A stretch of 64,000 nucleotides of DNA, taken from the sequence record PZ256263.1; one strand, 5' to 3'. The stretch's first letter is position 1. The number at the start of each line of letters is the position of its first letter. This DNA is from a phage. The position numbers and the translations under genes are program-made. The notes beneath the pieces were generated by a model that was given only the letters and a program-made list of their open reading frames with translations, did no database searches and had not been told where the DNA came from. Below are positions 1 through 34,698 of the stretch, in pieces.

Positions 1-92
1 AGCCGCTCCGCGCGCGTTTCCTAAAAAGGGGGAGTCCTCAAATAAAAAAGGGTTATTGGCAATGCCTTTACACCTCCTTCAACGTTCCAGCG

Positions 93-557
93 TTTCCCCG
101 TGCCTACTCCCCGTTATTCTTTCCCCGTGTATACTACCCAATACATTACCTACCCGTTTATTTAGTTCCCCTTTAAAGAGTGAGAGAAAGGCTATACTCT
201 GATAAGGCACAATCATAACAGGTCTAATAATACCGTATTGTTACCATTCAGCTCCCCATAGTTTGAGTGTAAATAGTTTCAATAGTAATAATTATGAGTG
301 CAATAATGATGTATGTATTAATTAAGTGGATGATTGTATTTCTTTTAATTGTTTCTTTTATTACTTTCTTTTTCAGCGTGCCTTTGTGAGTACGAAGTAC
401 GAACGTCTTTGATGTTTGAGTTATACAATTATTTAAGTGGTATATTATTACCGCACTATCTTGCATGTTTCCCCGTGGTCTGTCCTGCGGTTGTGTGTTC
501 CCCGTTCGTCCTGGTCTGTTGGTCTGCTACCCGTAGCGCCAGCGTAACACCCGTAGG
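93..557. repeat. Cluster of short CCCCGT-containing direct repeats (TTTCCCCGTG at 93-102, 120-129, 468-477; variants near 107, 154, 498, 529, 549)
   Basis: Direct reading of the non-coding region at the window start; no convincing ORF/RBS. Possible terminal, packaging or origin-associated iterons. Confidence 0.45.
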
Positions 558-671
558 ATTAGTGTTATAAAGTAACAATAGTCAGTAAGATAATCCCCTG
601 AATGCAGAAAGTTTAGTAAATTAAATTCCTTTAGTTTTCAGTAGGATGCAAGAAAGTTAGAAAATAAATGG

Positions 672-699
672 TTGACAGGCTTTTCCTTTATTATATAGT
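672..699 (+). promoter_or_regulatory. Host sigma70-like promoter (TTGACA, 16-nt spacer, TATAGT)
   Basis: -35 TTGACA at 672-677 and -10 TATAGT at 694-699, AT-rich upstream, about 45 nt before the first gene. Confidence 0.6.
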
Positions 700-743
700 T
701 GCGATTGTAGTTCGTAGTTTTCATCAACCGTAAGGAATATCAA

Positions 744-1616
744 ATGTCTAAAGTAGCAATTAACCACTTGAACAAAGCAAACGAAAGCCTTTCCTCTTTG
801 GGCTTGTCTGTTGGTAGTCCTGATGCGTGGATGGAAAACGAAAGCGCACGTAAAGGATTCAAAAACTCTGTAATGCTGGCTTGCTTGATCATTAATTCCA
901 CTGCGAACGCTTTACAGTGTGAAGATGAAAGCACGTTCAAAGAAAACGGTTTTACCGATATGCAGGACGCTATCAATTGCTACATTCAAGCAAATTTAGA
1001 TAGTTGGAATCAGAAAGATTGGCCTGAATCATGCCGCGATGTGAAAGCTGAATTATCCCGCTTGTCTGTCATGGTTGAAGCATGGAACAAGAAAAACAAG
1101 AAACAGCCAATCAAGCCTACTGTTGCAAGTAAGATTATGAAGTCTGTTAATCTGGCAAGTTATGCACTGGTTGCAGCTATTGGTGTTAGTGCACTGGTCA
1201 CATCTCTTTCTGATAAGGCTATCGCTAGTCCTACTCCTGCAACTGATGCCGCTGATGTTTTCGCTAGTTCCATCAATAAGGGTTGGATGATTTGCAACGG
1301 TGCGGATAGTGATGGAAGTACTATTGTATTAAAAATGAAGTTTAGCAACGTAACTAATGATGGCGTTCTCTTTCAGTCTAAGACACTAGACAATCAGCCT
1401 AACAATGATCTAGTTCTCAAGCGCACCGATAGTGACTCGGATATGGTTACATTTGGCACTGTACAACGTTACGAAGACGTTAAAGCTGTAACCAATCTAG
1501 TGAGTTATGGCCCGATCAATGAGTCGATGATTGCTACCACTGTTTACAATAACGCTGATAACGCTGTTTATACCGTTCACGTTAATTTAGCCAACTGTAT
1601 TAAGGCTAGTAAGTAA
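744..1616 (+). CDS. Hypothetical early protein (290 aa) with a central hydrophobic segment
   Basis: Long ORF directly downstream of the sigma70-like promoter; putative TM segment VNLASYALVAAIGVSALVTSL; no recognisable motif. Confidence 0.6.
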   Translation: MSKVAINHLNKANESLSSLGLSVGSPDAWMENESARKGFKNSVMLACLIINSTANALQCEDESTFKENGFTDMQDAINCYIQANLDSWNQKDWPESCRDVKAELSRLSVMVEAWNKKNKKQPIKPTVASKIMKSVNLASYALVAAIGVSALVTSLSDKAIASPTPATDAADVFASSINKGWMICNGADSDGSTIVLKMKFSNVTNDGVLFQSKTLDNQPNNDLVLKRTDSDSDMVTFGTVQRYEDVKAVTNLVSYGPINESMIATTVYNNADNAVYTVHVNLANCIKASK

Positions 1617-1641
1617 ATAACCTATTTTTGGGAGTGTAAAA

Positions 1642-1905
1642 ATGGCTATTAAAGAAATTAAGCTGGCTAATGGTTTTTCTTGCTTCGTTGGTCGTTCTGA
1701 AATCATGTTTAACACGCTTGATGGTCAGATAACCTTGCCTATTATCACTTTTTGCAAGATGGAATTTCAGCCTCTTAAGGATTGGTTAGCATTTGCTGAC
1801 CTTGAAATTACCCGTGAAGACTTCAAATCAATTTATATTGACGGTGATTTATCACTGGCTAACCTGCTTAATCATGGGCTAATTAAGGGTGATATTAATG
1901 GCTAA
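1642..1905 (+). CDS. Hypothetical protein (87 aa)
   Basis: ORF with GGGAG-like RBS upstream, tightly packed in the early operon. Confidence 0.5.
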   Translation: MAIKEIKLANGFSCFVGRSEIMFNTLDGQITLPIITFCKMEFQPLKDWLAFADLEITREDFKSIYIDGDLSLANLLNHGLIKGDING

Positions 1906-2119
1906 CCGTATCGTGATTAATAAATCAGTATCTTTAAACGGTTGTATCGTTGAAGTGCTAGGATGTTATGGCGAAAGCAGGTTATCCGCTCCCGCGCTAT
2001 GCAATTTGTCAGAATACAAAGCACGCATAACCGTTGCCTATTTAGGCGGTGAGTTATCATCTGACGATTATCAGGCACTAGTTAATCATTATGAGGATTG
2101 GAAACGTTATGGGAAATGA
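1898..2119 (+). CDS. Hypothetical protein (73 aa)
   Basis: ATG at 1898 preceded by AAGGGTGA; the track start at 1889 is an in-frame GTG. Confidence 0.45.
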   Translation: MANRIVINKSVSLNGCIVEVLGCYGESRLSAPALCNLSEYKARITVAYLGGELSSDDYQALVNHYEDWKRYGK

Positions 2120-2372
2120 AACTATCGCGTTAATTGATACGCATAATTACGGTGGCGTTACACTATCCTTTGATGAATCAACCGACGTTGGTTATTTGTC
2201 TTTTCTTTCCAAAGGTGAGATACAAAATATACGCTTTCCTATTGTCTGCTTAGTGCAAGATTATCTAACTATTGGGAAGTATTTAGCCCAGCGTGGGATT
2301 TTGTTGTCGCTGGAAGAAGTGGAACAAATCAGCGTATCATTTTTTGGCGAGGGTAGCAATGAAGAAGAATGA
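2109..2372 (+). CDS. Hypothetical protein (about 87 aa)
   Basis: ATG at 2109 overlaps the upstream stop (coupled arrangement); alternative start 2091. Confidence 0.45.
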   Translation: MGNETIALIDTHNYGGVTLSFDESTDVGYLSFLSKGEIQNIRFPIVCLVQDYLTIGKYLAQRGILLSLEEVEQISVSFFGEGSNEEE

Positions 2373-2464
2373 TTATTTTTGGCGTTGCTTGTTCGTTGTT
2401 ACAGTGGCGTTATTCGTCGCTGATATGCTTTATTCTTATATTCTCTAACTAAAGGTTTATTATC

Positions 2465-2830
2465 ATGGGTATTATCAAATTTGTAGTAAAAGTATTCGTA
2501 GGCTTCTTTCTGGTTGTTCTTCTGTTAGGTGTCCTGTTATCGGCTATGGGTAGCGTTAAGGCTGCAACATTCTCCCCTGCTACGGTGGAAGGTTTACAGT
2601 GCACCTATTTGATAGAAAATTATGATACCGGTAAAAAGTCACCTAAAGTTATTATTTTGCATGTAAATGATTTCGATCATGTGCAATCAGATAGTAAAAC
2701 TATTCTACTGGTAAATGAAACTACTGGTAAACAAATAACGGTCGATCACTTGATGCGCTCATCGTTAACGCTCTTTGATGAGTCTATGAATGAAATTGAG
2801 TCCGGTAATGGTCAATGTGTAAATCCATAG
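2465..2830 (+). CDS. Small membrane or secreted protein (121 aa)
   Basis: N-terminal hydrophobic stretch FVGFFLVVLLLGVLLSAMG; RBS-like AAAGG upstream. Confidence 0.55.
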   Translation: MGIIKFVVKVFVGFFLVVLLLGVLLSAMGSVKAATFSPATVEGLQCTYLIENYDTGKKSPKVIILHVNDFDHVQSDSKTILLVNETTGKQITVDHLMRSSLTLFDESMNEIESGNGQCVNP

Positions 2831-2906
2831 GCTTAATCTTTCTCCTGTATTGTGCCGTGGTCATGCCTATGGTCATAATCTATCTGATGCTTTAAATCCT
2901 TCCTGT

Positions 2907-2936
2907 AAGCCTCCTAGTGAGGCTTTTCTATTTTCT
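2907..2936 (+). terminator. Rho-independent terminator-like hairpin
   Basis: AAGCCTC / GAGGCTT stem with 5-nt loop followed by TTCTATTTTCT. Confidence 0.55.
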
Positions 2937-3107
2937 AAGGTGATTGTATACCTTACTCCCTTTTAGCTCATTGTGATGCGTTATAGGCCGCTTGTTATCG
3001 CTTTACAAGCCTTTTCCTATGATGTATCACGTTCGCCCGCTCTTTTACCTTCCCATAGTGAAAAAGTTTAAAATATTTTGTTTTACCCTATTGCATCCCT
3101 CACTGAT

Positions 3108-3116
3108 TAATGTATA
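3108..3116 (+). promoter_or_regulatory. TAATGTATA motif (candidate promoter for the phage sigma factor)
   Basis: Exact TAATGTATA; the same motif recurs upstream of several genes. No ORF lies immediately downstream, so function here is uncertain. Confidence 0.3.
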
Positions 3117-3216
3117 CTTCATTTCATCGGGTACGATGTAAAACATACAAGGCAAGGAAACTTGCCCCGCTCTTTAAAAATCAGGCTAGAAAGTGAAAAT
3201 ATTCTTAAAAAGAGTA

Positions 3217-3245
3217 TTGACACCGAAAACAGCCTGATATATAGT
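3217..3245 (+). promoter_or_regulatory. Strong host sigma70-like promoter (TTGACA, 17 nt, TATAGT)
   Basis: Consensus -35 at 3217-3222, 17-nt spacer, -10 TATAGT at 3240-3245; AT-rich UP-like sequence upstream. Confidence 0.65.
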
Positions 3246-3848
3246 GAGCATAGTCAGCGATGACTTAAAAAATCCCGCTCTTTAAAAATATGATTTGTCT
3301 TACGGGTGGCGGCGACGTCATTACTATAAGGCGCTCAGTTAATCGGTAGAATTGATTCCTGATTCATACGTGACGCAGGCGGACAATAAGCAATATCAAT
3401 AAGCCTTATTTGTTCGATACTTTCAAAAGATTAATGCTTGAAAGCGCACTAGATTCCCTGAAAGACAAATCAGACTTATCATCTTGCCCTTTCGCATAGA
3501 TTCACGCGAGATAAGGGAAAGGAATTAAAAGAAGATGATAAAAAGAGTTGCAAACGTGGTTAAAGTAGTCCATACTAACCACAAGTTAGCAAAACATCGC
3601 TAACTAGTTCCCAAATCAACGTATCGCGGGAAAGGTGGCACATAGTGCAGCGATTAGTTCAGGTGTAGGCGGCCTGTTAATGAATCAGTAAGCCTTCAAT
3701 GTGACAGTGATTAGCAGACACTTTAAAAGGCTAAACGCTCTTTAACAATATGAATCATAAGTTAAGCCTCACCGCTTAATCTTCAATCAAATAAAGCTGA
3801 TTGATATATCCTCCCAATAGTGGGAACGACGAAAAAGATTAAAAAGCG

Positions 3849-3877
3849 GTTGACAGCGAAAACAACATGATTCATAA
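3849..3877 (+). promoter_or_regulatory. Strong host sigma70-like promoter (TTGACA, 17 nt, CATAAT)
   Basis: Consensus -35 at 3849-3854, 17-nt spacer, -10 CATAAT at 3872-3877; flanks resemble the promoter at 3217. Confidence 0.65.
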
Positions 3878-4801
3878 TGAGCACTCACTAAGCAAATCAT
3901 CGCTTCAGTGAAAAGCGTAACAACGGCTAACAGTTGCATAGTGTGAGAAAGCACACTGATAGATTTACCGCTCTTTAATAATTTAAACATTCTCCTATAT
4001 CGGTTGAATATGTTAGATGATAATAACCATCGGATAACATACCAGATAAAACGGCGTAAAACTCCCTAAATTATCAGGGTAAACAGTTTTACATTCCCTT
4101 ACTGGAAACGTCACCACTGATAAACAGATTCATCGAGTACACGCAAAGACTTAAGCTAATCGCCCACGGTTAAGGGTAGCGGCGGTCATCGCTAACATGG
4201 TGCTACGGTGAAAGAAGTTAATCAGGGTAGGCAATCCCGACGAATTAACGCTCAATTGAGAGCGGCGGGGAGTGGTTAAAAAGTGGCAAATTGCTATTTA
4301 ACAATAAGGTTTAGTGTGAACGTTTACGATGTGAACGGCTTGAGATTCATCTTATGATGAAAGTACATAGTCGGTTTATGTAGTAAACTTGCCGAAAGAT
4401 ATAAAACGTCGGAACATTAGACGGTCAATGACTCTTTCGCAATAGTATCCCGTAGTGGGCGATGACTAGCGATTGAGAGTTGATATAAAAGGATAGGCGA
4501 GAGCGAAAGCAAAGTAAACGATATTGCCGACGGTTACAATAACGTAACTAATTAGAGTCGGACGCACTGCCTTATTGTGATGATTGATCATCGCTATCAG
4601 GTCGGCTTCGTTTATAGCGACTAATTAAAGATACCAGATGAAACATCACGGATAAGGGGGCGGCAAGGTTAACTCCTGATAAGACCGCCCCACTTACCTA
4701 TAACTACTGAATAGTTAGCGGTTATAGTTAAGTTAATAGCGACTTAAACAAGCTCATAGAGAGCGGGGCAATAGCGCCCTTATAATTGAAAGGTGAATAT
4801 C

Positions 4802-5701
4802 ATGGCTAAAATCTTTAATCTGGTAAAAGAATCTGGTTTTAACGCACTGGCTAACAACATTCGTAGCAATAATGCGGCGATCAAACAAGATGTTTCTAAC
4901 TTCCTGTTAGGGCACTTGCAGCACTTCCGCAGTAACGGTAAAAAGCTGGACGTATTGCAGACGGCTGTTGACTTCCTGTTAACTGAACGTTTTCGTGATA
5001 TGGATGTTATCGCTACCGCAATTACTTTCTTAACTCCTATCAAGTTTAACACCGATGCGGCAAATGGTCGTAAAAAGTGGATTAATCTGGAAGGTGAGGC
5101 GAAAGCTAAAGAAGACGCGAAAGAAGCACAAATTAAGGCCAAAATGGAACAAAACCGCGCTCGCTGGTCAAACGCTTTCGAAAACTTCGCGTTAGGTCGT
5201 GAAATTGAAGTCGATAATCCTAACTTCTTCAAAGGTTGCAATGACAACGTAGCGGCACACCTGCAAATTCCGGCAAAGAATAAAGAAGACTTTAACCAAG
5301 ATATTTACGCTTTGGTTGAACGCTTGAATGCAATCCGTATTGAAGCCAAATTACTGGCTGATGAGCGCAACGGCGCAACTAGTGATAACACTATTGCCCT
5401 GAGCGAAGAGGTAGGAAAGGTTAAGAAATCTTTTGATTCACTCATCAAGAAAGTCACGGCCTCAACGGTAGCGATCTCTGATGACTACCTGATGAACGCA
5501 TCAAGCAAGGAATTGGAATCTCTCGATTCATACGCTGATGAAATGGAAAAGACTGTTGCAGCTATGCAGGAGAAGTTAGAAAGTCTGCGCGGTCGTATCT
5601 CTTCAACGGTTGCTACCCGTACCGAACAAGCGGCGAAAGCAGAAGAAGAAGAAGTATTGCGCAAAGCGGCTGAAATTATGGCAGCACGTCAGGCTGCATA
5701 A
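4802..5701 (+). CDS. Hypothetical early protein (299 aa), predicted helical/coiled-coil
   Basis: ATG at 4802 with AAAGGTGA RBS 6 nt upstream; followed by a strong terminator, suggesting a discrete highly expressed early unit. Confidence 0.7.
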   Translation: MAKIFNLVKESGFNALANNIRSNNAAIKQDVSNFLLGHLQHFRSNGKKLDVLQTAVDFLLTERFRDMDVIATAITFLTPIKFNTDAANGRKKWINLEGEAKAKEDAKEAQIKAKMEQNRARWSNAFENFALGREIEVDNPNFFKGCNDNVAAHLQIPAKNKEDFNQDIYALVERLNAIRIEAKLLADERNGATSDNTIALSEEVGKVKKSFDSLIKKVTASTVAISDDYLMNASSKELESLDSYADEMEKTVAAMQEKLESLRGRISSTVATRTEQAAKAEEEEVLRKAAEIMAARQAA

Positions 5702-5723
5702 GTAAGACAATTCAAATAAACAT

Positions 5724-5759
5724 AAGGCGCTATCTTAACGGGTAGCGCCTTTTCTTTTA
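5724..5759 (+). terminator. Rho-independent terminator
   Basis: Perfect 9-bp stem AAGGCGCTA / TAGCGCCTT followed by a T-run. Confidence 0.7.
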
Positions 5760-5812
5760 TCAGTGCATTGATTCAGTGCATTAATCAAAGAATCTAATCA
5801 AAGGTGATGATC

Positions 5813-6031
5813 ATGTTAATTACGCATACCACGATTTATCGGAATCTTGTCAACGGTCAACATTACCGCCTATCTAAAAAGTATGGCGTTGAATGTAAAT
5901 GTGTTATTACCGGTGAATGGTATCCGTCGCCAATGAAGATTGAAGCATTGGAACGTGAAGCGATCAGCTATATTATCACGCAAGAAACAACGTTAGGCCG
6001 TATCTTAAGAAAGTTGGGATTGAGAAAATGA
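5813..6031 (+). CDS. Hypothetical protein (72 aa)
   Basis: ATG at 5813 with AAGGTGA 5 nt upstream; tandem 13-bp direct repeat just upstream. Confidence 0.5.
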   Translation: MLITHTTIYRNLVNGQHYRLSKKYGVECKCVITGEWYPSPMKIEALEREAISYIITQETTLGRILRKLGLRK

Positions 6032-6252
6032 TATTCAGTAGCAATTTTGGCAAGTGTCCTATTTGTGAGAAACATCGCAGCACGGGAAACCATCGCAAAT
6101 GTAGTAAGATATTACAGCGCCAACGTGATAACAATCATTGGGAAACTGTACACACTAATCAGCGTAAAGAAGAAGTTAGAAAAATGGCTGTTAAAGCGTC
6201 ATTTGCTCAATCCACCCGTATTGAACACATTCAAAGGTATCAAGCATCATGA
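6028..6252 (+). CDS. Hypothetical Cys/His-containing protein (74 aa)
   Basis: ATGA start/stop overlap with the upstream gene; CPICEKH motif; preferred over the overlapping other-frame ORF 6047-6259. Confidence 0.45.
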   Translation: MIFSSNFGKCPICEKHRSTGNHRKCSKILQRQRDNNHWETVHTNQRKEEVRKMAVKASFAQSTRIEHIQRYQAS

Positions 6253-6458
6253 TCACTAATATTTCAGAGTTTAAGAAAGCTCCTTCCCGACTGTTAGGCC
6301 GTCGTGTTGTATATCTTTACAGCAACAAAGGTAAATGTACAACCGGAAGAATTACAACGGTGAGTAGTACCAACAAAACACTACTAAAGTTATGCGTGGC
6401 TATGGATGACGGTACAATCCTGCTACGAAGTTGGAAATCTTTCGGTTTACTTGATTGA
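6249..6458 (+). CDS. Hypothetical protein (69 aa)
   Basis: ATGA overlap with the upstream gene (translational coupling pattern). Confidence 0.45.
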   Translation: MITNISEFKKAPSRLLGRRVVYLYSNKGKCTTGRITTVSSTNKTLLKLCVAMDDGTILLRSWKSFGLLD

Positions 6459-6527
6459 GTTGTTTGTTCAAGCCTGTCACCTTGATGGGCTTGCCCGATA
6501 TAACTTATCACTAAAAGGAATAAGATT

Positions 6528-6971
6528 GTGGCTAAATCAAAAATCAGCATGAAGGGTGGGCGTTGTTTTTCTATCTCTGAACTGGAGAAAGAGAAGCCGA
6601 AGGCAACCAATCACGTCAGTAAGCGTAGTTTAAAACGTCGTGCTGCAAAGGCTGAAGCTGAATCCCATATTCCTTCTAGTGTGGCAAAGCGTATAGGCCA
6701 TCGTGTTCATCGTGCTGATGCGTTATTGTTAGCCGATCATAAACGTTCTTTATTACAGAGCGGGGGAGCTAAAACAGAAGAGGAGAAGAAGTTAGAAATC
6801 TTCTGTAATGGTCGCACCCGTGGTAAACAGAAGTTTAAGGGTAGCACTAAAGACCCTCAAGCATTTCCTAAGACAAGTCAGTGTGCGCCTGATGTTTTCT
6901 ACGCAGATAGTAAACACAAATGGGGAGTTGAAAAATACATTGACCCCATCAAAGAGGCAAGGGTTAAATAG
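6528..6971 (+). CDS. Hypothetical basic protein (147 aa)
   Basis: GTG start; Lys/Arg-rich sequence. Confidence 0.45.
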   Translation: MAKSKISMKGGRCFSISELEKEKPKATNHVSKRSLKRRAAKAEAESHIPSSVAKRIGHRVHRADALLLADHKRSLLQSGGAKTEEEKKLEIFCNGRTRGKQKFKGSTKDPQAFPKTSQCAPDVFYADSKHKWGVEKYIDPIKEARVK

Positions 6972-7051
6972 TAGGAATATAGCCCCCTCTTTTAGTACTA
7001 TGACGCTCTTTCTGTCGCGTCGTGCCCTCTCCCCATTTGAAGCTTCCGCAT

Positions 7052-7074
7052 AGCCGCCTTTGAGCGGCTTTTTG
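7052..7074 (+). terminator. Rho-independent terminator-like hairpin
   Basis: GCCGC / GCGGC stem followed by TTTTT. Confidence 0.55.
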
Positions 7075-7136
7075 CGTTGCTGTAAGTGCATTTGCGAGTG
7101 TATTTATAGCAACGGTCATGTGTTGCTTTCAGGTTT

Positions 7137-7163
7137 GCCCCGGCTACGGCTGGGGCTTTTTTA
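7137..7163 (+). terminator. Rho-independent terminator
   Basis: GCCCCGGC-tacg-GCTGGGGC stem (one G-U pair) followed by TTTTTTAT. Confidence 0.6.
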
Positions 7164-7211
7164 TGCCCGTAAAACAGGAGGTAGCAAGTTCTGATAACAA
7201 CGGCCCAGCTA

Positions 7212-7601
7212 ATGTTGACATTGACTATTTATTATGAGGCAGGGAATCAGCCAACCGCATGTAAAGCTATGGTTGCGGATACCGTGATAAATAGAATGGC
7301 CCAACGAAAACTGACCGCTGAACAGGTGATAAGACAAAAGAACCAGTTTGAGTGGATTCCGGTACTATTAAAACAGGAGAAACCTTATAAACGTTATGTA
7401 AAGCTGATTCGTGATAAAAATCCGATGACTAAGAAGGCCATTGGAGAAAGCGAGCGGCTGGCTAAACGTGCCCTTAAGAAGAATTATGTTCCGCTGTACA
7501 GTGGGACTTACTTTCAGAGTAAGAGCGAAGGGGTGCCAAAATGGTATGCCAATCCTATGTATTGTGGTGATTTAGTGTTCGATAATAGCTCTAGGGAATA
7601 A
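7212..7601 (+). CDS. SleB/CwlJ-like cell-wall hydrolase domain protein (129 aa)
   Basis: YYEAGNQ...VADTVINRM...VIRQKNQFEWIP...PKWYANP resembles the Hydrolase_2 (SleB/CwlJ) pattern by eye; start codon uncertain. Confidence 0.5.
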   Translation: MLTLTIYYEAGNQPTACKAMVADTVINRMAQRKLTAEQVIRQKNQFEWIPVLLKQEKPYKRYVKLIRDKNPMTKKAIGESERLAKRALKKNYVPLYSGTYFQSKSEGVPKWYANPMYCGDLVFDNSSRE

Positions 7602-7800
7602 TCACTAGTGCCAGATTTGACAAACTAAATTCCTTTATAAACCAACCACTTAGTAAATTTATTGAAAAAGATGGTAGTATTCTGGGACTATGGGTAATGC
7701 TCTGTATATAGACCCTTTGAAAATTTCTTAGAAAATAAGTTTACTAAATATAACTTACTTAAATAATATTACTTTTAATCTCTGATAAAGGGTAAACAAT

Positions 7801-8097
7801 ATGACTTTAGAAGTATATAAATTCCTTTTTGTAAGCTGTTTAACTATCAGCGTTCTAGGGTTTATTATTCTCAGAAACAAAGCAGCAAGCTGGGAGAGAA
7901 TGTACAAATCTCTAGTCCGAGTGGATGAGATGTATAATGAGAAAGTTAAAGCAACTCTTAACGATCTTATTATGCAAGTTGAGGACAGAAACAAGCGTCT
8001 TCAGAATCTCAACCATGAAGTATTACGCCTTGCTCGTGCTAATGAAGATTTGCGAGTAGCCATTGCTAAACAGCAGGAGATTAACAGTGAAGCATGA
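7801..8097 (+). CDS. Hypothetical membrane-anchored coiled-coil protein (98 aa)
   Basis: N-terminal hydrophobic segment then a heptad-like charged region. Confidence 0.5.
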   Translation: MTLEVYKFLFVSCLTISVLGFIILRNKAASWERMYKSLVRVDEMYNEKVKATLNDLIMQVEDRNKRLQNLNHEVLRLARANEDLRVAIAKQQEINSEA

Positions 8098-8344
8098 TAT
8101 CAATACAGCACCTGTGGTTAAGCAGCTTAAAGATCTAAGAGTGGGGGATGTTTTTGAAACTGTACCACATAAGAATAAGTTGTATCTTGTAGTAAAACTC
8201 GATTCTTCAACTGTTTATCAAGCCCAATGGAAACCTGATAAAAAGGTAGTAGTAGATCTTACTTCAGATAGAGTAACAATGTTGAGAAAAGATACTGTTG
8301 TTCAAATAGTTGATAATGTTCGTCTTACTAATAAGGTGGATTAA
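8087..8344 (+). CDS. Small paralogous protein, family A member 1
   Basis: Shares GDVF ... aromatic pair ... NLxTG-like pattern with 10 other ORFs; GTG at 8087 with CAGGAGA RBS (track start 8063). Confidence 0.5.
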   Translation: MKHDINTAPVVKQLKDLRVGDVFETVPHKNKLYLVVKLDSSTVYQAQWKPDKKVVVDLTSDRVTMLRKDTVVQIVDNVRLTNKVD

Positions 8345-8346
8345 CA

Positions 8347-8583
8347 GTGAAAGTTAATATTAAATCCGATCGTACAATGCTTCGCTTAAATAATATGAAG
8401 CCGGGCGTTCTATTTGAGCGTAAAGATTCCCTTTACATCAGAACCGACACTCTGTACGCAGATAATTATATCAACTGTGTTGATGTAGTAACTGGAAAGC
8501 TCATGCCTTTTAAACGGGATGAAGTCTGCCAAGTTCGTAGCGATCTCCACATAACTAACATAGAGGCTAAAGATGAAGATTGA
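8347..8583 (+). CDS. Small paralogous protein, family A member 2
   Basis: GTG start after AAGGTGGA; family A pattern (PGVLFERK ... LYIRT ... VDVVTGKL). Confidence 0.5.
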   Translation: MKVNIKSDRTMLRLNNMKPGVLFERKDSLYIRTDTLYADNYINCVDVVTGKLMPFKRDEVCQVRSDLHITNIEAKDED

Positions 8584-8824
8584 TCTTGAGATGAAAGCTA
8601 AAGAGTTGTGTGTGGGTGATTTGAAACTTGGTGATGTATTCCAAGTTAAGGCAACATGTATTGATTATTACATGATCGTTCAGCTATATACACCACATGT
8701 GTCAGAGACTGATCTTCGGAATGGTTGTGTAGTGCTTAGTTTAAGCACCAATCAAGTAATGAAGCTAGATTCAAACTTACCTGTTTCAGTTATCCATGAT
8801 GCAGTAATTACCAATCGGAAGTGA
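8573..8824 (+). CDS. Small paralogous protein, family A member 3
   Basis: LGDVFQV ... DYYMIV ... family A pattern. Confidence 0.55.
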   Translation: MKIDLEMKAKELCVGDLKLGDVFQVKATCIDYYMIVQLYTPHVSETDLRNGCVVLSLSTNQVMKLDSNLPVSVIHDAVITNRK

Positions 8825-8826
8825 AC

Positions 8827-9039
8827 ATGAACATTGAAAAGAAGGTTGTTGACGAGGCTGTTCAGTTACGATCTCTTGAAACACATGATGTATTTGTGTG
8901 GGGAGGTAGTCTGTTTCAGAAATCTGCTTATGCTGTAGAGGGTGGGGTTCGTTGTTTTAATATCTTCAACAATGAGATGCAAATCCTACCTAACTTCGCT
9001 CATGTGAATAAACTTATCCACCTTTCTATTTATCAATAA
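8827..9039 (+). CDS. Small paralogous protein, family A member 4 (divergent)
   Basis: ATG at 8827 after GGAAGTGA; weaker family A pattern (HDVFVWG). Confidence 0.45.
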   Translation: MNIEKKVVDEAVQLRSLETHDVFVWGGSLFQKSAYAVEGGVRCFNIFNNEMQILPNFAHVNKLIHLSIYQ

Positions 9040-9049
9040 GGGCAATTAG

Positions 9050-9268
9050 ATGGAAATTAAAGTAGTTGATTACCCTAAATATGCAAACGCAGAAGATGTC
9101 AAGGGCGGTGATGTTTTCTCTTACGATAGACGTTTCTGGCTGATGTTAGAAGATAAAACTCCTGATGGTTTGTGTAAGGCCGCTAACTTGAACAGTGGTT
9201 CTGTTGAAGTCTTTGGTCTATCAACAACTGTTATGCCACGTCCTGATCTGTGTTTATCTCAAAAGTAA
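9050..9268 (+). CDS. Small paralogous protein, family A member 5
   Basis: GGDVFSY ... FWLML ... ANLNSGSV family A pattern. Confidence 0.55.
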   Translation: MEIKVVDYPKYANAEDVKGGDVFSYDRRFWLMLEDKTPDGLCKAANLNSGSVEVFGLSTTVMPRPDLCLSQK

Positions 9269-9626
9269 CACCGACTTATAGCCCTTGTGCTTATCAGAGG
9301 GCTATGTGAGGGTGTTCCTCATTAACTTATTAATTCAGGCATATGCCACACCGCTAGGGAGAGCTTGCTCGAACATCCGGTGTTAGACTAAAACCTGTTA
9401 ATTTTCGAAAGACTTTCTGATATGTAGGGGTACATATTAGTTTGGGATTCAGGAGACTTCCTAGGGGTAGGGAGTCTTCACCAGTTGGAATAAGAGATAG
9501 CTCTAGAACCTGAACTCTTAGGCAGAGAAGGTCGGCAATGAGTACGCGGTCAGAATTAGTCTACTGACTAGGGCTATCCCTTATATCAACTGGCAATAAT
9601 GCCTCCACTAACAAAGAGAGATAGGT

Positions 9627-9767
9627 ATGAAAGTATCAACCAAACGTATGAACCGCCCTGAACGTATGGATGCAGTAGCTAACGGTGCTCTGAAACTGGA
9701 AGGCTTCTGGGTTCATGCAATGTCAGCCATCCGTAACAAGCAAGGTAATTGGACCTATGCCGGTTAA
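9627..9767 (+). CDS. Small hypothetical protein (46 aa)
   Basis: ATG preceded by a GAGAGA-like RBS; below the ORF-track size cutoff. Confidence 0.35.
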   Translation: MKVSTKRMNRPERMDAVANGALKLEGFWVHAMSAIRNKQGNWTYAG

Positions 9768-9789
9768 ATCAGTCCATGTAATAGGTATG

Positions 9790-9966
9790 CGAGAGATCAT
9801 TCGCATTGCCTTAATGGAACACACTGATCGCAACGCTCAACTAACGCAAATCTCTAAGTGTCTTAACTGTTCGAGAGATGTGGCTAAGGAATTAATGTTC
9901 GCATTCCTTTATAATGCAGAAGACGAAACGCTACAGAATCATCTGATTCGTGGTGTGAGTCAATAA
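9790..9966 (+). CDS. Small hypothetical protein, possible HTH (58 aa)
   Basis: Internal ATG of track ORF 9715-9966 chosen to avoid overlap; start uncertain. Confidence 0.35.
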   Translation, partial: REIIRIALMEHTDRNAQLTQISKCLNCSRDVAKELMFAFLYNAEDETLQNHLIRGVSQ

Positions 9967-9971
9967 AGAGA

Positions 9972-10000
9972 GGCTGCCTTCGGGCGGCCTTTGTTGTTTT
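9972..10000 (+). terminator. Rho-independent terminator
   Basis: GGCTGCC-ttcg-GGCGGCC stem (one G-U pair) followed by TTTGTTGTTTT. Confidence 0.6.
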
Positions 10001-10043
10001 AATTAAGGGACAACTCTTACTTAAACTAACAAGAGGTGCTTAT

Positions 10044-10391
10044 ATGAGATGCATAGTTAAAAGTTGGGAAACTAAATCGGGTCTTCGTGCTGTGATTATG
10101 CACATGAACAATTCCCACTTATGTGGGTATGTAGAGTTACCAGATAGTTTGAAACATAAAAACTTCACCGGATATAACGGAGAGGAAAAGGTTGTTTGTT
10201 ATGTGAACGTTCATGGTGGTGTCACATGGCAAGACACACTTGAAGAGATGGGTGGTTTGGATACAATCGGATTTGATTGTGCCCATGCAGGCGATAAGAC
10301 ACAGTTCAACCCTAACGGGGTTCCAAGAACAGAAGCGTTCTGCATCAACGAGTGCGAACAAATGGCTGAACAACTGAGAGATCTTGAATAA
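10044..10391 (+). CDS. Hypothetical protein (115 aa)
   Basis: ORF with AAGAGG RBS; His/Cys/Asp-rich, possible metal site; no confident family. Confidence 0.5.
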   Translation: MRCIVKSWETKSGLRAVIMHMNNSHLCGYVELPDSLKHKNFTGYNGEEKVVCYVNVHGGVTWQDTLEEMGGLDTIGFDCAHAGDKTQFNPNGVPRTEAFCINECEQMAEQLRDLE

Positions 10392-10569
10392 AATGTCTAA
10401 GCAAACAATCAAAAATACGCAAGCTGGTTACTCTTATGTTAACTCTCCTTGCTGTGGTGCTCGTGTTAATCTGGTTAAGGAAGAGGTTCGTATCGTTCAG
10501 CGTGGCGCTACTGTTGTTCGTTCATGCTGTGTCTGTGGTAATGATATCTTTATTAAAGGTAAAGTATGA
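10384..10569 (+). CDS. Small zinc-ribbon-like protein (61 aa)
   Basis: Two Cys pairs (CCGAR ... CCVCGND). Confidence 0.45.
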   Translation: MNKMSKQTIKNTQAGYSYVNSPCCGARVNLVKEEVRIVQRGATVVRSCCVCGNDIFIKGKV

Positions 10570-10817
10570 AAAACTTCCAAGCTGCACCAATAACTAAAGT
10601 GATCGAAGTTGATGATGCGATGATGACTGTTCCTCTGAACACTCGTTACATTGCAATTGACAAGATGGGTTATGTATGGGCTTGGAAGATTAAGCCTAGT
10701 TATAACGCATTGTTTGATGAGTTTGTTTGTACTGGTACTTACAGTCCTACATTCTTGGGTTTATTTGGAGAGTTTGATGGTAAGCATAAAATCATCACTC
10801 TCCCTGCTTGTGCTTGA
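10566..10817 (+). CDS. Hypothetical protein (83 aa)
   Basis: ATGA overlap with the upstream gene. Confidence 0.45.
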   Translation: MKNFQAAPITKVIEVDDAMMTVPLNTRYIAIDKMGYVWAWKIKPSYNALFDEFVCTGTYSPTFLGLFGEFDGKHKIITLPACA

Positions 10818-10824
10818 GGTTATT

Positions 10825-10989
10825 ATGTTCAAGTGGTTTAAACGTTTCTTCCATCTCCATGATTGGGAGACAATAAAAGAAATTCGTTTACACATATATA
10901 ATGAGATTGGTCAAATAGAAGACACAGGTACTCGTTATATACTTCGATGTAAAACATGTGGTCATATCACCAAGCGAGATATGATCTAA
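10825..10989 (+). CDS. Small hypothetical protein (54 aa) with C-terminal CxxC
   Basis: ATG at 10825 after GAGGTTATT; ends just upstream of the tRNA. Confidence 0.4.
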   Translation: MFKWFKRFFHLHDWETIKEIRLHIYNEIGQIEDTGTRYILRCKTCGHITKRDMI

Positions 10990-10997
10990 ATAATTCT

Positions 10998-11073
10998 GCG
11001 CTCTTAGCTCAATGGATAGAGCAGTAGCCTTCTAAGCTATTGGTTACAGGTTCGAGTCCTGTAGGGCGCACCA
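10998..11073 (+). tRNA. tRNA-Arg (anticodon UCU), 76 nt including CCA
   Basis: Hand-folded cloverleaf: acceptor GCGCTCT/AGGGCGC, D-arm GCTC-AATGGAT-AGAGC, anticodon loop CTTCTAA, T-arm ACAGG-TTCGAGT-CCTGT, discriminator A then CCA. Confidence 0.85.
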
Positions 11074-11093
11074 AAATCAAATAGGAGGTGGTT

Positions 11094-11393
11094 ATGAGTT
11101 GGGGTGGTGTAATATCCTTAATCTGTATCTTCCTTGTCTGTGTGGCCCTTACAGGCTGCGTACAGAGCCGTCCTGATGGGTGGTGTGCAGTAGCAGTGGA
11201 TGGTATTTGTGTATCTCGCTGGCATAAAGGTGAGAAGGTTCCTTCTGGTGAGATTGATATGCGCTGGAACGGGGCAACCTGCTCTAATGCTAACCCTTCT
11301 ATTAATGAAGAGAAGTCTACGCCAGACAATGTTGTGATTGATACAGCGTTGTGGTGTGGTGGCTCTACGATTACAACCGGTAAGGAGTGGTAA
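11094..11393 (+). CDS. Cys-rich lipoprotein (99 aa)
   Basis: AGGAGG RBS; signal peptide with lipobox LTGC (ICIFLVCVALTGC); about 10 Cys in the mature part. Confidence 0.55.
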   Translation: MSWGGVISLICIFLVCVALTGCVQSRPDGWCAVAVDGICVSRWHKGEKVPSGEIDMRWNGATCSNANPSINEEKSTPDNVVIDTALWCGGSTITTGKEW

Positions 11394-11394
11394 T

Positions 11395-11643
11395 ATGACA
11401 GCTCATTATTGGAATACAAAGAAGCTTCTTGAAGAGATGGCTGGGGGTAGTAGAGTACAGCTGATTTCTATGCTTAGGATGGATGCTCGCTCTTTACGTT
11501 TCCAAGTAAAGATTGGTAACTTCAGTGATGGTCTTTATTACACACTGAAGGAAAGAATTAAGAAGACTCACTTTATTATGTACGGAATCAAACCGAGAAC
11601 ATATGTTAACTACATGTATTGGGATACATGCTACGATAATTGA
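11395..11643 (+). CDS. Hypothetical protein (82 aa)
   Basis: ATG at 11395 after AAGGAG. Confidence 0.5.
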   Translation: MTAHYWNTKKLLEEMAGGSRVQLISMLRMDARSLRFQVKIGNFSDGLYYTLKERIKKTHFIMYGIKPRTYVNYMYWDTCYDN

Positions 11644-11649
11644 GGTTAT

Positions 11650-11872
11650 TATGTTATTAGAAGCTAAGCAAACATTACCAGTAGTTCCTTTGTCTACACT
11701 TCTTAGTGGGAGTGCTTTTAGACATGATAATGGTTTTTGGATTAAGGGCGACCAAGAGGTTGGAGGATATATTACCTGCATCAACATCTGCAACGGCGTT
11801 GTTGACGGATTTCGTCCAGCCGCTGAAGTCACTCCTCAATCCAACGCAAAGGTTGTAGGTTTGGTATATTAA
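11650..11872 (+). CDS. Small paralogous protein, family A member 6
   Basis: About 60 percent identical by eye to 11882-12103 (FWIK, GYITC, NG-VDG-RP, VGLVY). Confidence 0.55.
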
Positions 11873-11881
11873 GGAACTTAT

Positions 11882-12103
11882 ATGAAATTAGATTCTAAAC
11901 AATCCCTTAAAACTGTTGAACTGTCCACACTGCCAAACGGAAGTATTTTTGGTCATGATAAACACTTCTGGATTAAAACAGACTACTTGAACGATGGGTA
12001 TATTACCTGCGTCAACCTTTGGAATGGTTCAGTGGATGGCTATCGCCCTAGTGCAAAAGTAGTCCCTCAGCCTGATGCAAAGGCTATAGGTTTGGTCTAC
12101 TAA
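11882..12103 (+). CDS. Small paralogous protein, family A member 7
   Basis: Tandem duplicate of 11650-11872. Confidence 0.55.
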   Translation: MKLDSKQSLKTVELSTLPNGSIFGHDKHFWIKTDYLNDGYITCVNLWNGSVDGYRPSAKVVPQPDAKAIGLVY

Positions 12104-34675: not shown

Positions 34676-34698
34676 TAATGTATACTCCTTAATGTACA
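34676..34698 (+). promoter_or_regulatory. Tandem TAATGTATA / TAATGTACA motifs (candidate phage-sigma promoters)
   Basis: Exact consensus at 34676-34684 and a near copy at 34690-34698, 37 nt upstream of an AAGGAG RBS and the ATG at 34721. Confidence 0.4.

Follow-up and report, generated by a model that had tools for sequence, protein, structure and literature searches.

Between positions 2831 and 4801 of a phage DNA stretch of 64,000 nucleotides (sequence record PZ256263.1, hereafter the window), there is a region that leads directly into the homologue of the phiEco32 protein gp124. We show here that this region is non-coding and that the RNA downstream of the second of its two promoters (around 3885-4801) is extensively folded, with a fold that is conserved on the + strand. 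Together with its promoters, its repeats of the antitermination signal boxA and a terminator behind the gene, the region is probably a self-contained early transcription unit, conserved in the phiEco32-like phages (Gordonclarkvirinae) and in more distant relatives.

A non-coding region with a conserved RNA fold

The window corresponds to the reverse complement of a Kuravirus (phiEco32-like, Gordonclarkvirinae) genome, and its start lies near the right end of that genome. We found 99 phage records that match positions 2831-4801, the top one being Escherichia phage SkaterBoy_Bas90 (98.5%). Genes 125 and 124 flank the counterpart in phiEco32 itself (NC_010324), which is located at 72787-74730 on the minus strand and is unannotated. 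Actually, the locus is blank in nearly all the 99 records, and a few of them call short hypothetical open reading frames (ORFs) inside it. For the comparisons we used a set of 23 aligned Kuravirus/Suseptimavirus relatives (close relatives) and a set of 8 metagenomic phage contigs that were reached via their gp124 homologues, at 47-70% protein identity (distant relatives).

Regarding the coding capacity, the + strand has no ORF of at least 25 amino acids between 3500 and 4793. The stop codons number 38-57 per frame, and the longest open stretch is 33-41 codons. In the 23-genome alignment, the variable sites of 3885-4801 were spread evenly over the three codon phases (134/136/135, p=0.99), whereas those of the adjacent gene were not (80/55/256, p=1e-40), and codon periodicity was not found in any 150-nt sub-window. 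An original prediction, made from the letters of the window, had described the region as ORF-free, which both the ORF list and the flat codon-phase variation confirm; a conserved small protein gene, the finding that it had set against its own proposal, was sought and not found.

The evidence for the fold comes from covariation. RNAalifold, applied to the 23 sequences of 3880-4810, gave 238 pairs, 78 of them with compensatory double changes. In the 280-pair structure, 98.4% of the cells (pair x sequence) formed standard pairs, and changes on both sides that preserved the pairing were found in 86 pairs, versus 39.5 +/- 3.5 in column shuffles (0 of 500 reached the real value) and 9-15 in slid controls, where the partner was moved 1-3 columns. 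The covariation score was 0.216, versus 0.04-0.06 in controls. The structure had been derived from these very sequences, and its margin over the slid controls is inflated by that; we therefore also ran an out-of-sample test, in which the Kuravirus-derived structure was applied to a sequence-only alignment of the distant contigs. The intermediate group kept 77% of the pairs, with 248 compensatory cells, and the most distant group kept 60%, with 181 compensatory cells; the corresponding slid controls gave 36-44% of pairs and 80-116 compensatory cells. Compensatory changes were above the controls, therefore, out of sample too.

The fold also favours the + strand. The RNAalifold energy was -454 for the + strand versus -383 for the reverse complement, and the z-score of the single-sequence minimum free energy (MFE) was -7.6 versus -4.1. 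G-U pairs are frequent in the fold, and the selection on the region is acting on RNA structure, G-U pairs included. A cmscan search with Rfam 15 over window positions 1-12000 (E <= 1) gave nothing in 2831-4801, GOLLD, ROOL, OLE, 6S, rRNA, riboswitches and introns included, and the tRNA/tmRNA scan gave nothing in the region either. The abundant early non-coding transcripts, or long structured leader, that had been put forward for this region are thus strongly supported, both by covariation far above the controls and by the absent coding signal.

The region is better conserved than its surroundings. In phages of other genera, 3476-4801 was compared with the neighbouring gene and the identities were 87% versus 76% in SU7 and 89% versus 75% in Bas86; furthermore, the alignment of the relatives has nearly no indels in 3760-4801. 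In the 8 distant contigs, the DNA upstream of the gp124 homologue matches the RNA profile. All 8 have 2-3 consensus boxA copies, on the + strand only and only upstream of the gp124 homologue, and the distance from the last boxA to the gp124 ATG is 870-936 nt (833 in the window). Two of these contigs (L135 and L137) were scanned for promoters and terminators: every tandem TTGACA promoter is followed by a boxA, and there is a strong terminator after the gene. The order of promoters with boxA, structured RNA, gp124 and terminator is a conserved layout.

As a separate observation, in three Logan contigs (L134, L135 and L137, around 1950-5000) some 3 kb of gene-free DNA lie ahead of the gp124 homologue and abut terminase genes on the opposite strand. 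The Kuravirus RNA profile matches only the last stretch of it, around 1 kb in L135 and around 0.65 kb in L134 and L137.

We also looked for the unit in wider collections. The pattern scan of IMG/VR returned five contigs only (L027-L031), all of them close Kuravirus relatives. The scan of metagenomes gave 101 matches, of which 7 were real and all 7 came from close relatives, and none of the 52 matches in the genomes of 185k species was real. BLAST of the region against 5,426 complete E. coli genomes gave no match. Therefore, the region was not copied from the leader of a host ribosomal RNA (rrn) operon, and we rejected a host origin of the sequence.

Promoters, terminators and boxA repeats

The terminators, the two promoters, the boxA copies, their hairpins and the motif at 3108 described in this section are all on the + strand. 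An intrinsic terminator at 2907-2935 closes the upstream early operon (genes 744-2830); its stem (2907-2925) has 7 bp with 4 G-C pairs and is followed by a T-run, and it is annotated as a terminator in SU10 and 4E8. Downstream of it there are two promoters, P1 at 3217-3245 (TTGACA-17-TATAGT, predicted start near 3252) and P2 at 3850-3878 (TTGACA-17-CATAAT, predicted start near 3885). Both have an A-rich upstream tract, match at 11 of 12 hexamer positions and keep the 17-nt spacer of sigma70 early promoters; they are 82% identical to each other over 34 nt. Although promoter-like sites at a loose scan threshold are at chance level (11 found versus 10.6 expected), P1 and P2 are the best two sigma70 sites in 2000-6000, and they are set apart by their score, by their conservation in 23 of 23 relatives and by the published listing for SU10. 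There, the two sequences appear verbatim as predicted early promoters "between CDS120 and CDS121" (Table S2, PMC4281155). No terminator was found between P1 and gp124, and the unit ends at a strong intrinsic terminator at 5724-5751 (12-bp stem, 6 G-C pairs, T-run), equivalents of which are kept in distant relatives. A third near-consensus promoter, TTGACAGGCTTTTCCTTTATTATATAGT, lies at 672-700 of the window, ahead of the first early gene (744); it is conserved in relatives and has no boxA after it.

There are exactly four copies of the repeat CGCTCTTTAANAA, at 3168, 3276, 3736 and 3969. With at most one mismatch allowed, chance predicts 0.33 occurrences in 64 kb, and none of 100 shuffles came to the observed count; the copy at 3735 starts with A instead of C. 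The boxA consensus that Baniulyte et al. (PMC5725501) obtained for gamma-proteobacteria, GYTCTTTAANA, is matched perfectly at 3169, 3277, 3737 and 3970, that is, four times within 813 nt, and the whole 64-kb window has 5 matches versus 0.56 expected (0 of 100 shuffles reach 5). Judged by its sequence, the repeat CCGCTCTTTAAnAAT is boxA, the Nus-factor antitermination signal at which NusB/NusE are loaded. This is the signal of the rrn operons, the lambda nut sites and the T7 early leader. Given the predicted starts, its placement in the window is that of a boxA, on the transcribed strand, after a promoter and before a long untranslated RNA. Every one of the 23 close relatives carries 3-6 copies, and the core of the fourth copy is invariant at around 50% overall nucleotide identity, even where the gp124 of the relatives is 47-50% identical.

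The first copy, boxA1 (CGCTCTTTAAAAA, 3168-3180), lies 48 nt upstream of the -35 element of P1 and directly 3' of a hairpin, GGCAAG-GAAA-CTTGCC (3151-3166), which was read from the sequence and was also returned, as an inverted repeat, by a scan of the other strand. The identical boxA2 (CGCTCTTTAAAAA, 3276-3288) is placed around 24 nt after the predicted P1 start, and a hairpin read from the sequence, GTCA-GCGA-TGAC (3253-3264), stands at the predicted 5' end of the P1 transcript. An internal 'spacer' copy in that transcript, boxA3 (CGCTCTTTAACAA, 3736-3748), is found 113 nt upstream of the -35 element of P2. Finally, boxA4 (CGCTCTTTAATAA, 3969-3981) follows the predicted P2 start by around 85 nt and is preceded, 11 nt to its 5' side, by a boxB-like hairpin, AGUGUG-AGAAAG-CACACU (3940-3957), in which 3 of 6 pairs are compensatory and one pair is seen as UA, CG, GC and AU across relatives. 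Hairpins therefore stand ahead of 3 of the 4 boxA copies, with the loops GAAA, GCGA and AGAAAG, and the hairpin-then-boxA order is that of rrn leaders.

Another hairpin is followed by a degenerate boxA-like element, UGCUAUUUAACAA (at 4293; the whole feature spans 4283-4305), present in 22 of the 23 scanned relatives and not found in TH34, L004. It departs from the boxA consensus by C4 to A, and a mutation at this position abolishes the function of the suhB boxA (PMC5725501). Therefore, the function of the degenerate copy is doubtful.

The copies are also ordered with respect to the fold. Four of them, boxA2, boxA3, boxA4 and the degenerate boxA5, stand immediately before, or overlap, the 5' strand of a helix that closes a domain, namely 3292-3302/3467-3477 for boxA2, 3746-3758/3867-3879 for boxA3, 3988-3995/4267-4274 for boxA4 and 4303-4310/4569-4576 for the boxA5-like element, which is an rrn-type architecture. 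Furthermore, the 3' flank of each boxA that is upstream of a promoter pairs with the spacer and -10 element of its promoter, and the partners differ coordinately between promoter-module types. Thus, boxA1 with its 3' flank (3169-3187) pairs with 3231-3249, which comprises the P1 spacer, -10 and +1, and the 3' flank of boxA3 (3746-3758) pairs with 3867-3879 in P2 and covaries between the module types. We also noticed a 15-nt 'anti-boxA', TAGAGAGCGGGGCAA, just before the gp124 ribosome-binding site, which is 93% complementary to boxA1 and its 5' flank (3162-3176 versus 4757-4771). This pairing was rejected, since in the consensus fold the local hairpins 4752-4764 and 4765-4780 explain 4757-4771 better.

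Regarding the motif TAATGTATA at 3108-3116, it matches exactly the middle/late promoter consensus of the phage sigma factor gp36 of phiEco32, tAATGTAtA (PMC4281155, PMC12276001), and shares an 11-nt identity with a site at 34676. Among the 23 relatives, it is carried only by the window, ECBP2 and KBNP1711, and not by phiEco32. The six mapped gp36 promoters of phiEco32 precede genes 6, 13, 26, 40, 58 and 68 (PMC8948821); the site at 3108, with its 3 carriers out of 23, is not a conserved site upstream of middle or late genes. At most, the motif may be a lineage-specific extra promoter, around 45 nt before boxA1.

Most of these elements had been pointed out in the original prediction. The terminator at the start of the region was found as a stem at 2907-2925 with its T-run, the two strong host-type promoters are both present (the coordinates given for the second one were one base low), and the four repeat copies flanking them lie within 1 nt of where they had been placed. 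The short hairpins claimed for most copies exist at 3 of 4, one of them covarying, and the search for the motif in related genomes gave boxA copies in 23 of 23 close and 8 of 8 distant relatives. The repeat and the motif at 3108 had both been seen correctly; what had been missed was their identity as boxA and as the gp36 consensus.

Proposed mechanism and alternative explanations

We propose that the host sigma70 polymerase would initiate at the tandem promoters P1 (near 3252) and P2 (near 3885), both predicted starts, and that each transcript would soon expose a hairpin and then a consensus boxA, with a further boxA between the RNA domains. If boxA works here as it does in rrn operons, lambda nut, suhB and CRISPR arrays, its RNA would bind host NusB-NusE, giving an elongation complex modified by NusA, NusG and SuhB and resistant to Rho (PMC5725501, PMC7665894, PMC8632103 and PMC10250234). 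Such resistance would be needed because around 0.9 kb (from P2) or 1.55 kb (from P1) is transcribed without being translated. The same Nus complex may also chaperone the folding of the long-range helices, a role that PMC8632103 and PMC10250234 propose for rrn. The untranslated RNA would then fold into several closed domains, run without a terminator into gp124 and stop at the terminator after the gene. The folded RNA would act as RNA, and our preferred guess is that it is a cis-acting leader, or a processed stable RNA, working with gp124.

The E. coli rrn control region is alike in several respects. It has strong tandem sigma70 promoters with A-rich upstream tracts, the hairpin-then-boxA order, a boxA repeated before successive structured RNA domains and immediately ahead of the 5' strands of long-range closing helices, and a long untranslated structured product. 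Moreover, the phage boxA is identical at 12 of 13 positions to the rrn boxA, UGCUCUUUAACAA. However, the phage region has neither similarity to E. coli DNA nor an rRNA match, it has no recognisable boxC and it runs into a protein gene.

The early leader of T7 consists of the promoters A1-A3, a boxA, the RNase III site R0.3 and gene 0.3. As in the phage analysed here, a virulent coliphage has several strong host-type early promoters near a genome end and a perfect boxA on an untranslated leader before the first early gene. We located this boxA, CGCTCTTTAACAA, at 812-824 of the T7 genome, 63 nt after A3, which is the last of three strong early promoters, and before gene 0.3; it is absent from the annotated features of the RefSeq record. 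The phage of the window is therefore not alone in having a boxA behind strong early promoters. Nevertheless, T7 has one boxA and a leader of around 175-430 nt, whereas the unit described here has 4-5 boxA, a leader of 0.9-1.55 kb and a multi-domain covarying fold.

The lambda nutL/nutR sites, CRISPR arrays (PMC7665894) and suhB (PMC5725501) share the same boxA consensus, which there protects or regulates untranslated RNA versus Rho. Unlike in lambda, neither an N-like protein nor a lambda-type boxB (a GAAAA pentaloop 3' of boxA) was identified here, and the order of the elements is rrn-like.

Several points weigh against the mechanism proposed above. The promoter starts are predicted, and Nus loading is inferred for this phage. 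The positions of boxA1 and boxA3, ahead of promoters, are compatible with a DNA operator as well. In the related phage 7-11, an ORF-free leader of around 1 kb lacks boxA; a boxA is thus not obligatory for a long leader in the wider group. Domain I of the fold is only partly conserved in the most distant relatives, which may be an alignment error. Finally, simple translational control is unsupported, as the predicted helix that would cover the ribosome-binding site of gp124 is weak and distant relatives do not conserve it.

A bolder explanation, which we hold as tentative, is that the RNA of around 0.9 kb represents a new class of large 'ornate' phage RNA that the phage would produce as soon as infection begins, from its own mimic of an rRNA operon, and that would act in trans, for example as an anti-defence or host-takeover RNA or as a ribonucleoprotein with gp124. 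The mimic would consist of the tandem strong promoters, a boxA before each domain and folding assisted by the Nus complex. The BASEL study found that these phages resist almost all the defence systems it tested (PMC11990801).

The early transcripts might instead be a decoy for Nus factors (or for RNA polymerase), their 4-5 boxA copies titrating NusB, NusE and SuhB from the host rrn operons and so aiding host shut-off, with phage antitermination being secondary. Over-expressed from plasmids, boxA RNA competes for NusB, and here several consensus boxA copies stand in one unit behind two very strong promoters. However, a decoy would require neither a covarying structure of around 900 nt nor the conserved link to gp124, and the distant relatives keep only 2-3 boxA copies. 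We consider it unlikely.

A promoter-driven replication origin had also been suggested in the original prediction. The promoters and the structured RNA would then prime or open an origin, as ColE1 RNA II or the promoter-dependent origins of T7 and T4 do. Compatible with this are the strong promoters in a large stretch without ORFs close to a genome end and, in the distant relatives, the position of the ORF-free stretch between late and early operons that diverge; covariation would be expected of a structured primer RNA too. Nevertheless, we found no DnaA box even with one mismatch allowed, no AT-rich unwinding element, no iterons or other repeats besides boxA and no anomaly of composition or skew, selection acts on RNA pairing including G-U, and the RNA always leads straight into gp124 and the terminator. 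The suggestion of an origin therefore fared badly, and we regard it as quite improbable.

It is also very improbable that the CGCTCTTTAA repeats are not RNA signals but DNA operators on either side of P1 and P2, through which a regulator from the phage or the host would control these promoters. The positions of boxA1 and boxA3 ahead of the -35 elements, and the fact that an inverted repeat including CGCTCTTTAA embraces each promoter, would fit such operators. However, all the copies have the same orientation and the exact RNA boxA consensus, those downstream of the promoters sit at the place expected for a boxA, as in T7, each tandem promoter of the two distant contigs scanned for promoters has a boxA copy after it, and the partners of the inverted repeats covary like RNA helices. 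That the region is non-functional spacer or hides small protein genes, as the lack of annotation in nearly all the records and the short ORFs called in a few might suggest, is hardly credible in view of its conservation above the flanking genes, its massive covariation, its lack of codon periodicity and its many stops in every frame.

RNA domains, related phage RNAs and neighbouring genes

The features of the RNA described here are all on the + strand. From 5' to 3', the first one is elemA (3290-3478), a structured cassette that forms a closed multi-stem domain with 57 pairs, 7 of them compensatory, and is closed by 3292-3302 with 3467-3477. It is followed by a hairpin at 3478-3539, AUCAUCUU...AAGAUGAU, with an inner CCCUUUCGC/GCGAG..GGG stem, which is found in all 23 aligned relatives (alifold, 21 distinct rows), and by a variable segment (3540-3735) that is present in a subset of the relatives, with a gap fraction of 0.5-0.77. 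Between boxA3 and P2 there are small covarying hairpins.

Downstream of P2, domain I (3988-4274), defined by covariation, has a conserved AUCGCCCACGG..GGGUAGCGGCGG core. Its closing helix, 3988-3995 with 4267-4274, was 97% paired in the intermediate relatives, with 16 compensatory cells, and its inner helices are less conserved in distant relatives. Domain II (4303-4576) is closed by 4303-4310 with 4569-4576, a helix that is 91-100% paired with compensatory changes in both out-of-sample groups, and many of its inner helices covary. Domain III (4577-4649) is a long interrupted helix of 18 + 7 pairs, 91-100% paired out of sample. Then come a hairpin at 4653-4696 with a covarying stem (5 of 12 pairs compensatory) and a nearly invariant loop, CAAGGUUAACUCCUGAUAAG, and four terminal hairpins within 4698-4780 (4698-4727, 4729-4746, 4752-4764 and 4765-4780), just before the ribosome-binding site.

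The helix 3958-3969/4791-4800, which would occlude the ribosome-binding site, appeared in both the MFE and alifold predictions; it was marginally better than control windows and absent in distant relatives, and we dropped it as evidence. Direct repeats were also noticed within the RNA, at 4036-4052/4628-4644 (AACAUACCAGAUAAAAC / AAGAUACCAGAUGAAAC) and at 4046-4059/4401-4414 (AUAAAACGGCGUAA / AUAAAACGUCGGAA), which may hint at a duplicated sub-domain or at repeated binding sites.

The cassette elemA is carried by about half of the relatives and also by the unrelated 65-kb phage PJNS034 (75% identity). TacPo2, the closest relative of PJNS034, has no elemA at the same boxA-bounded site, and elemA can thus be described as a boxA-bounded cassette. 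This distribution suggests that boxA-bounded RNA modules may be exchanged between phage groups. PJNS034 (E. coli; 4000-5821) and TacPo2 (Pantoea; 4000-5623) have 1.6-1.8 kb of ORF-free DNA between divergent terminase and early genes, holding strong promoters and consensus boxA, and the string CGCTCTTTAACAATATGAATCAT is common to both. A covariance model of the domain 4107-4235 and an nhmmer profile of the whole RNA, searched against PJNS034, TacPo2 and Salmonella phage 7-11, gave no significant homology beyond boxA.

In 7-11, an ORF-free leader of around 1 kb is located at 6865-7917 on the minus strand, upstream of gene 151 at the right end. A boxA was not found there even when 2 mismatches were allowed, nor was any homology to the Kuravirus RNA detected. 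A likeness seen by eye was therefore dropped after the covariance-model and nhmmer searches. The antitermination strategy of 7-11 'remains to be defined' (PMC8948821).

Among the large ornate RNAs already described from phages or bacteria, GOLLD, ROOL and OLE (PMC12286853, PMC5737381) are similar to the RNA described here, which is a conserved, phage-borne RNA of several hundred to around 900 nt, with many domains and heavy covariation. However, it has no covariance-model match to any of them, is early, promoter-proximal and boxA-coupled, is joined to a protein gene and is not beside tRNA genes.

The promoters, the 'spacer region' and boxA antitermination as a mechanism were already known. In the literature on phiEco32, Kuravirus and Gordonclarkvirinae that we covered, we did not find a boxA or a structured RNA described at this locus, although two primary phiEco32 papers were outside this scope and may hold a prior mention. 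What appears to be new is that a large structured RNA, punctuated by boxA copies, makes up the dominant early transcription unit of a virulent phage. Kuraviruses are common among E. coli phages and serve in therapy, and there has been little study of their molecular biology; the early product behind their strongest promoters seems to be a large, conserved and folded RNA rather than a protein. Should this be borne out, a new family would be added to the short list of large structured phage RNAs, and a virulent phage would be exploiting the host machinery of rRNA antitermination and folding without an N-like protein. It would also be a tractable system, since E. coli K-12 whose O-antigen has been restored can be infected with the BASEL isolates Bas86-94. 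In addition, the annotation of around 100 public genomes, which leave the locus blank or call spurious small ORFs, can be corrected.

Regarding the neighbouring genes, the gp124 homologue (4802-5701, + strand, ATG at 4802) has 299 amino acids and, by the predicted layout, would be co-transcribed with the RNA. Pfam and PHROGs were uninformative about its function (phrog_13018). Its AlphaFold2 model is helical, with a pLDDT of 71.6, and outside its own family neither PDB nor BFVD gave a matching fold. One tRNA gene (10998-11070, + strand; Rfam tRNA, 72 bits) lies around 6 kb downstream and is not adjacent to the structured RNA. Upstream of the region, the ORFs of 87 amino acids (1642-1905) and 121 amino acids (2465-2830) have homologues that are publicly labelled as 'polymerase' and 'terminase', and neither has a Pfam match; these labels look like annotation artefacts spread via PHROGs.

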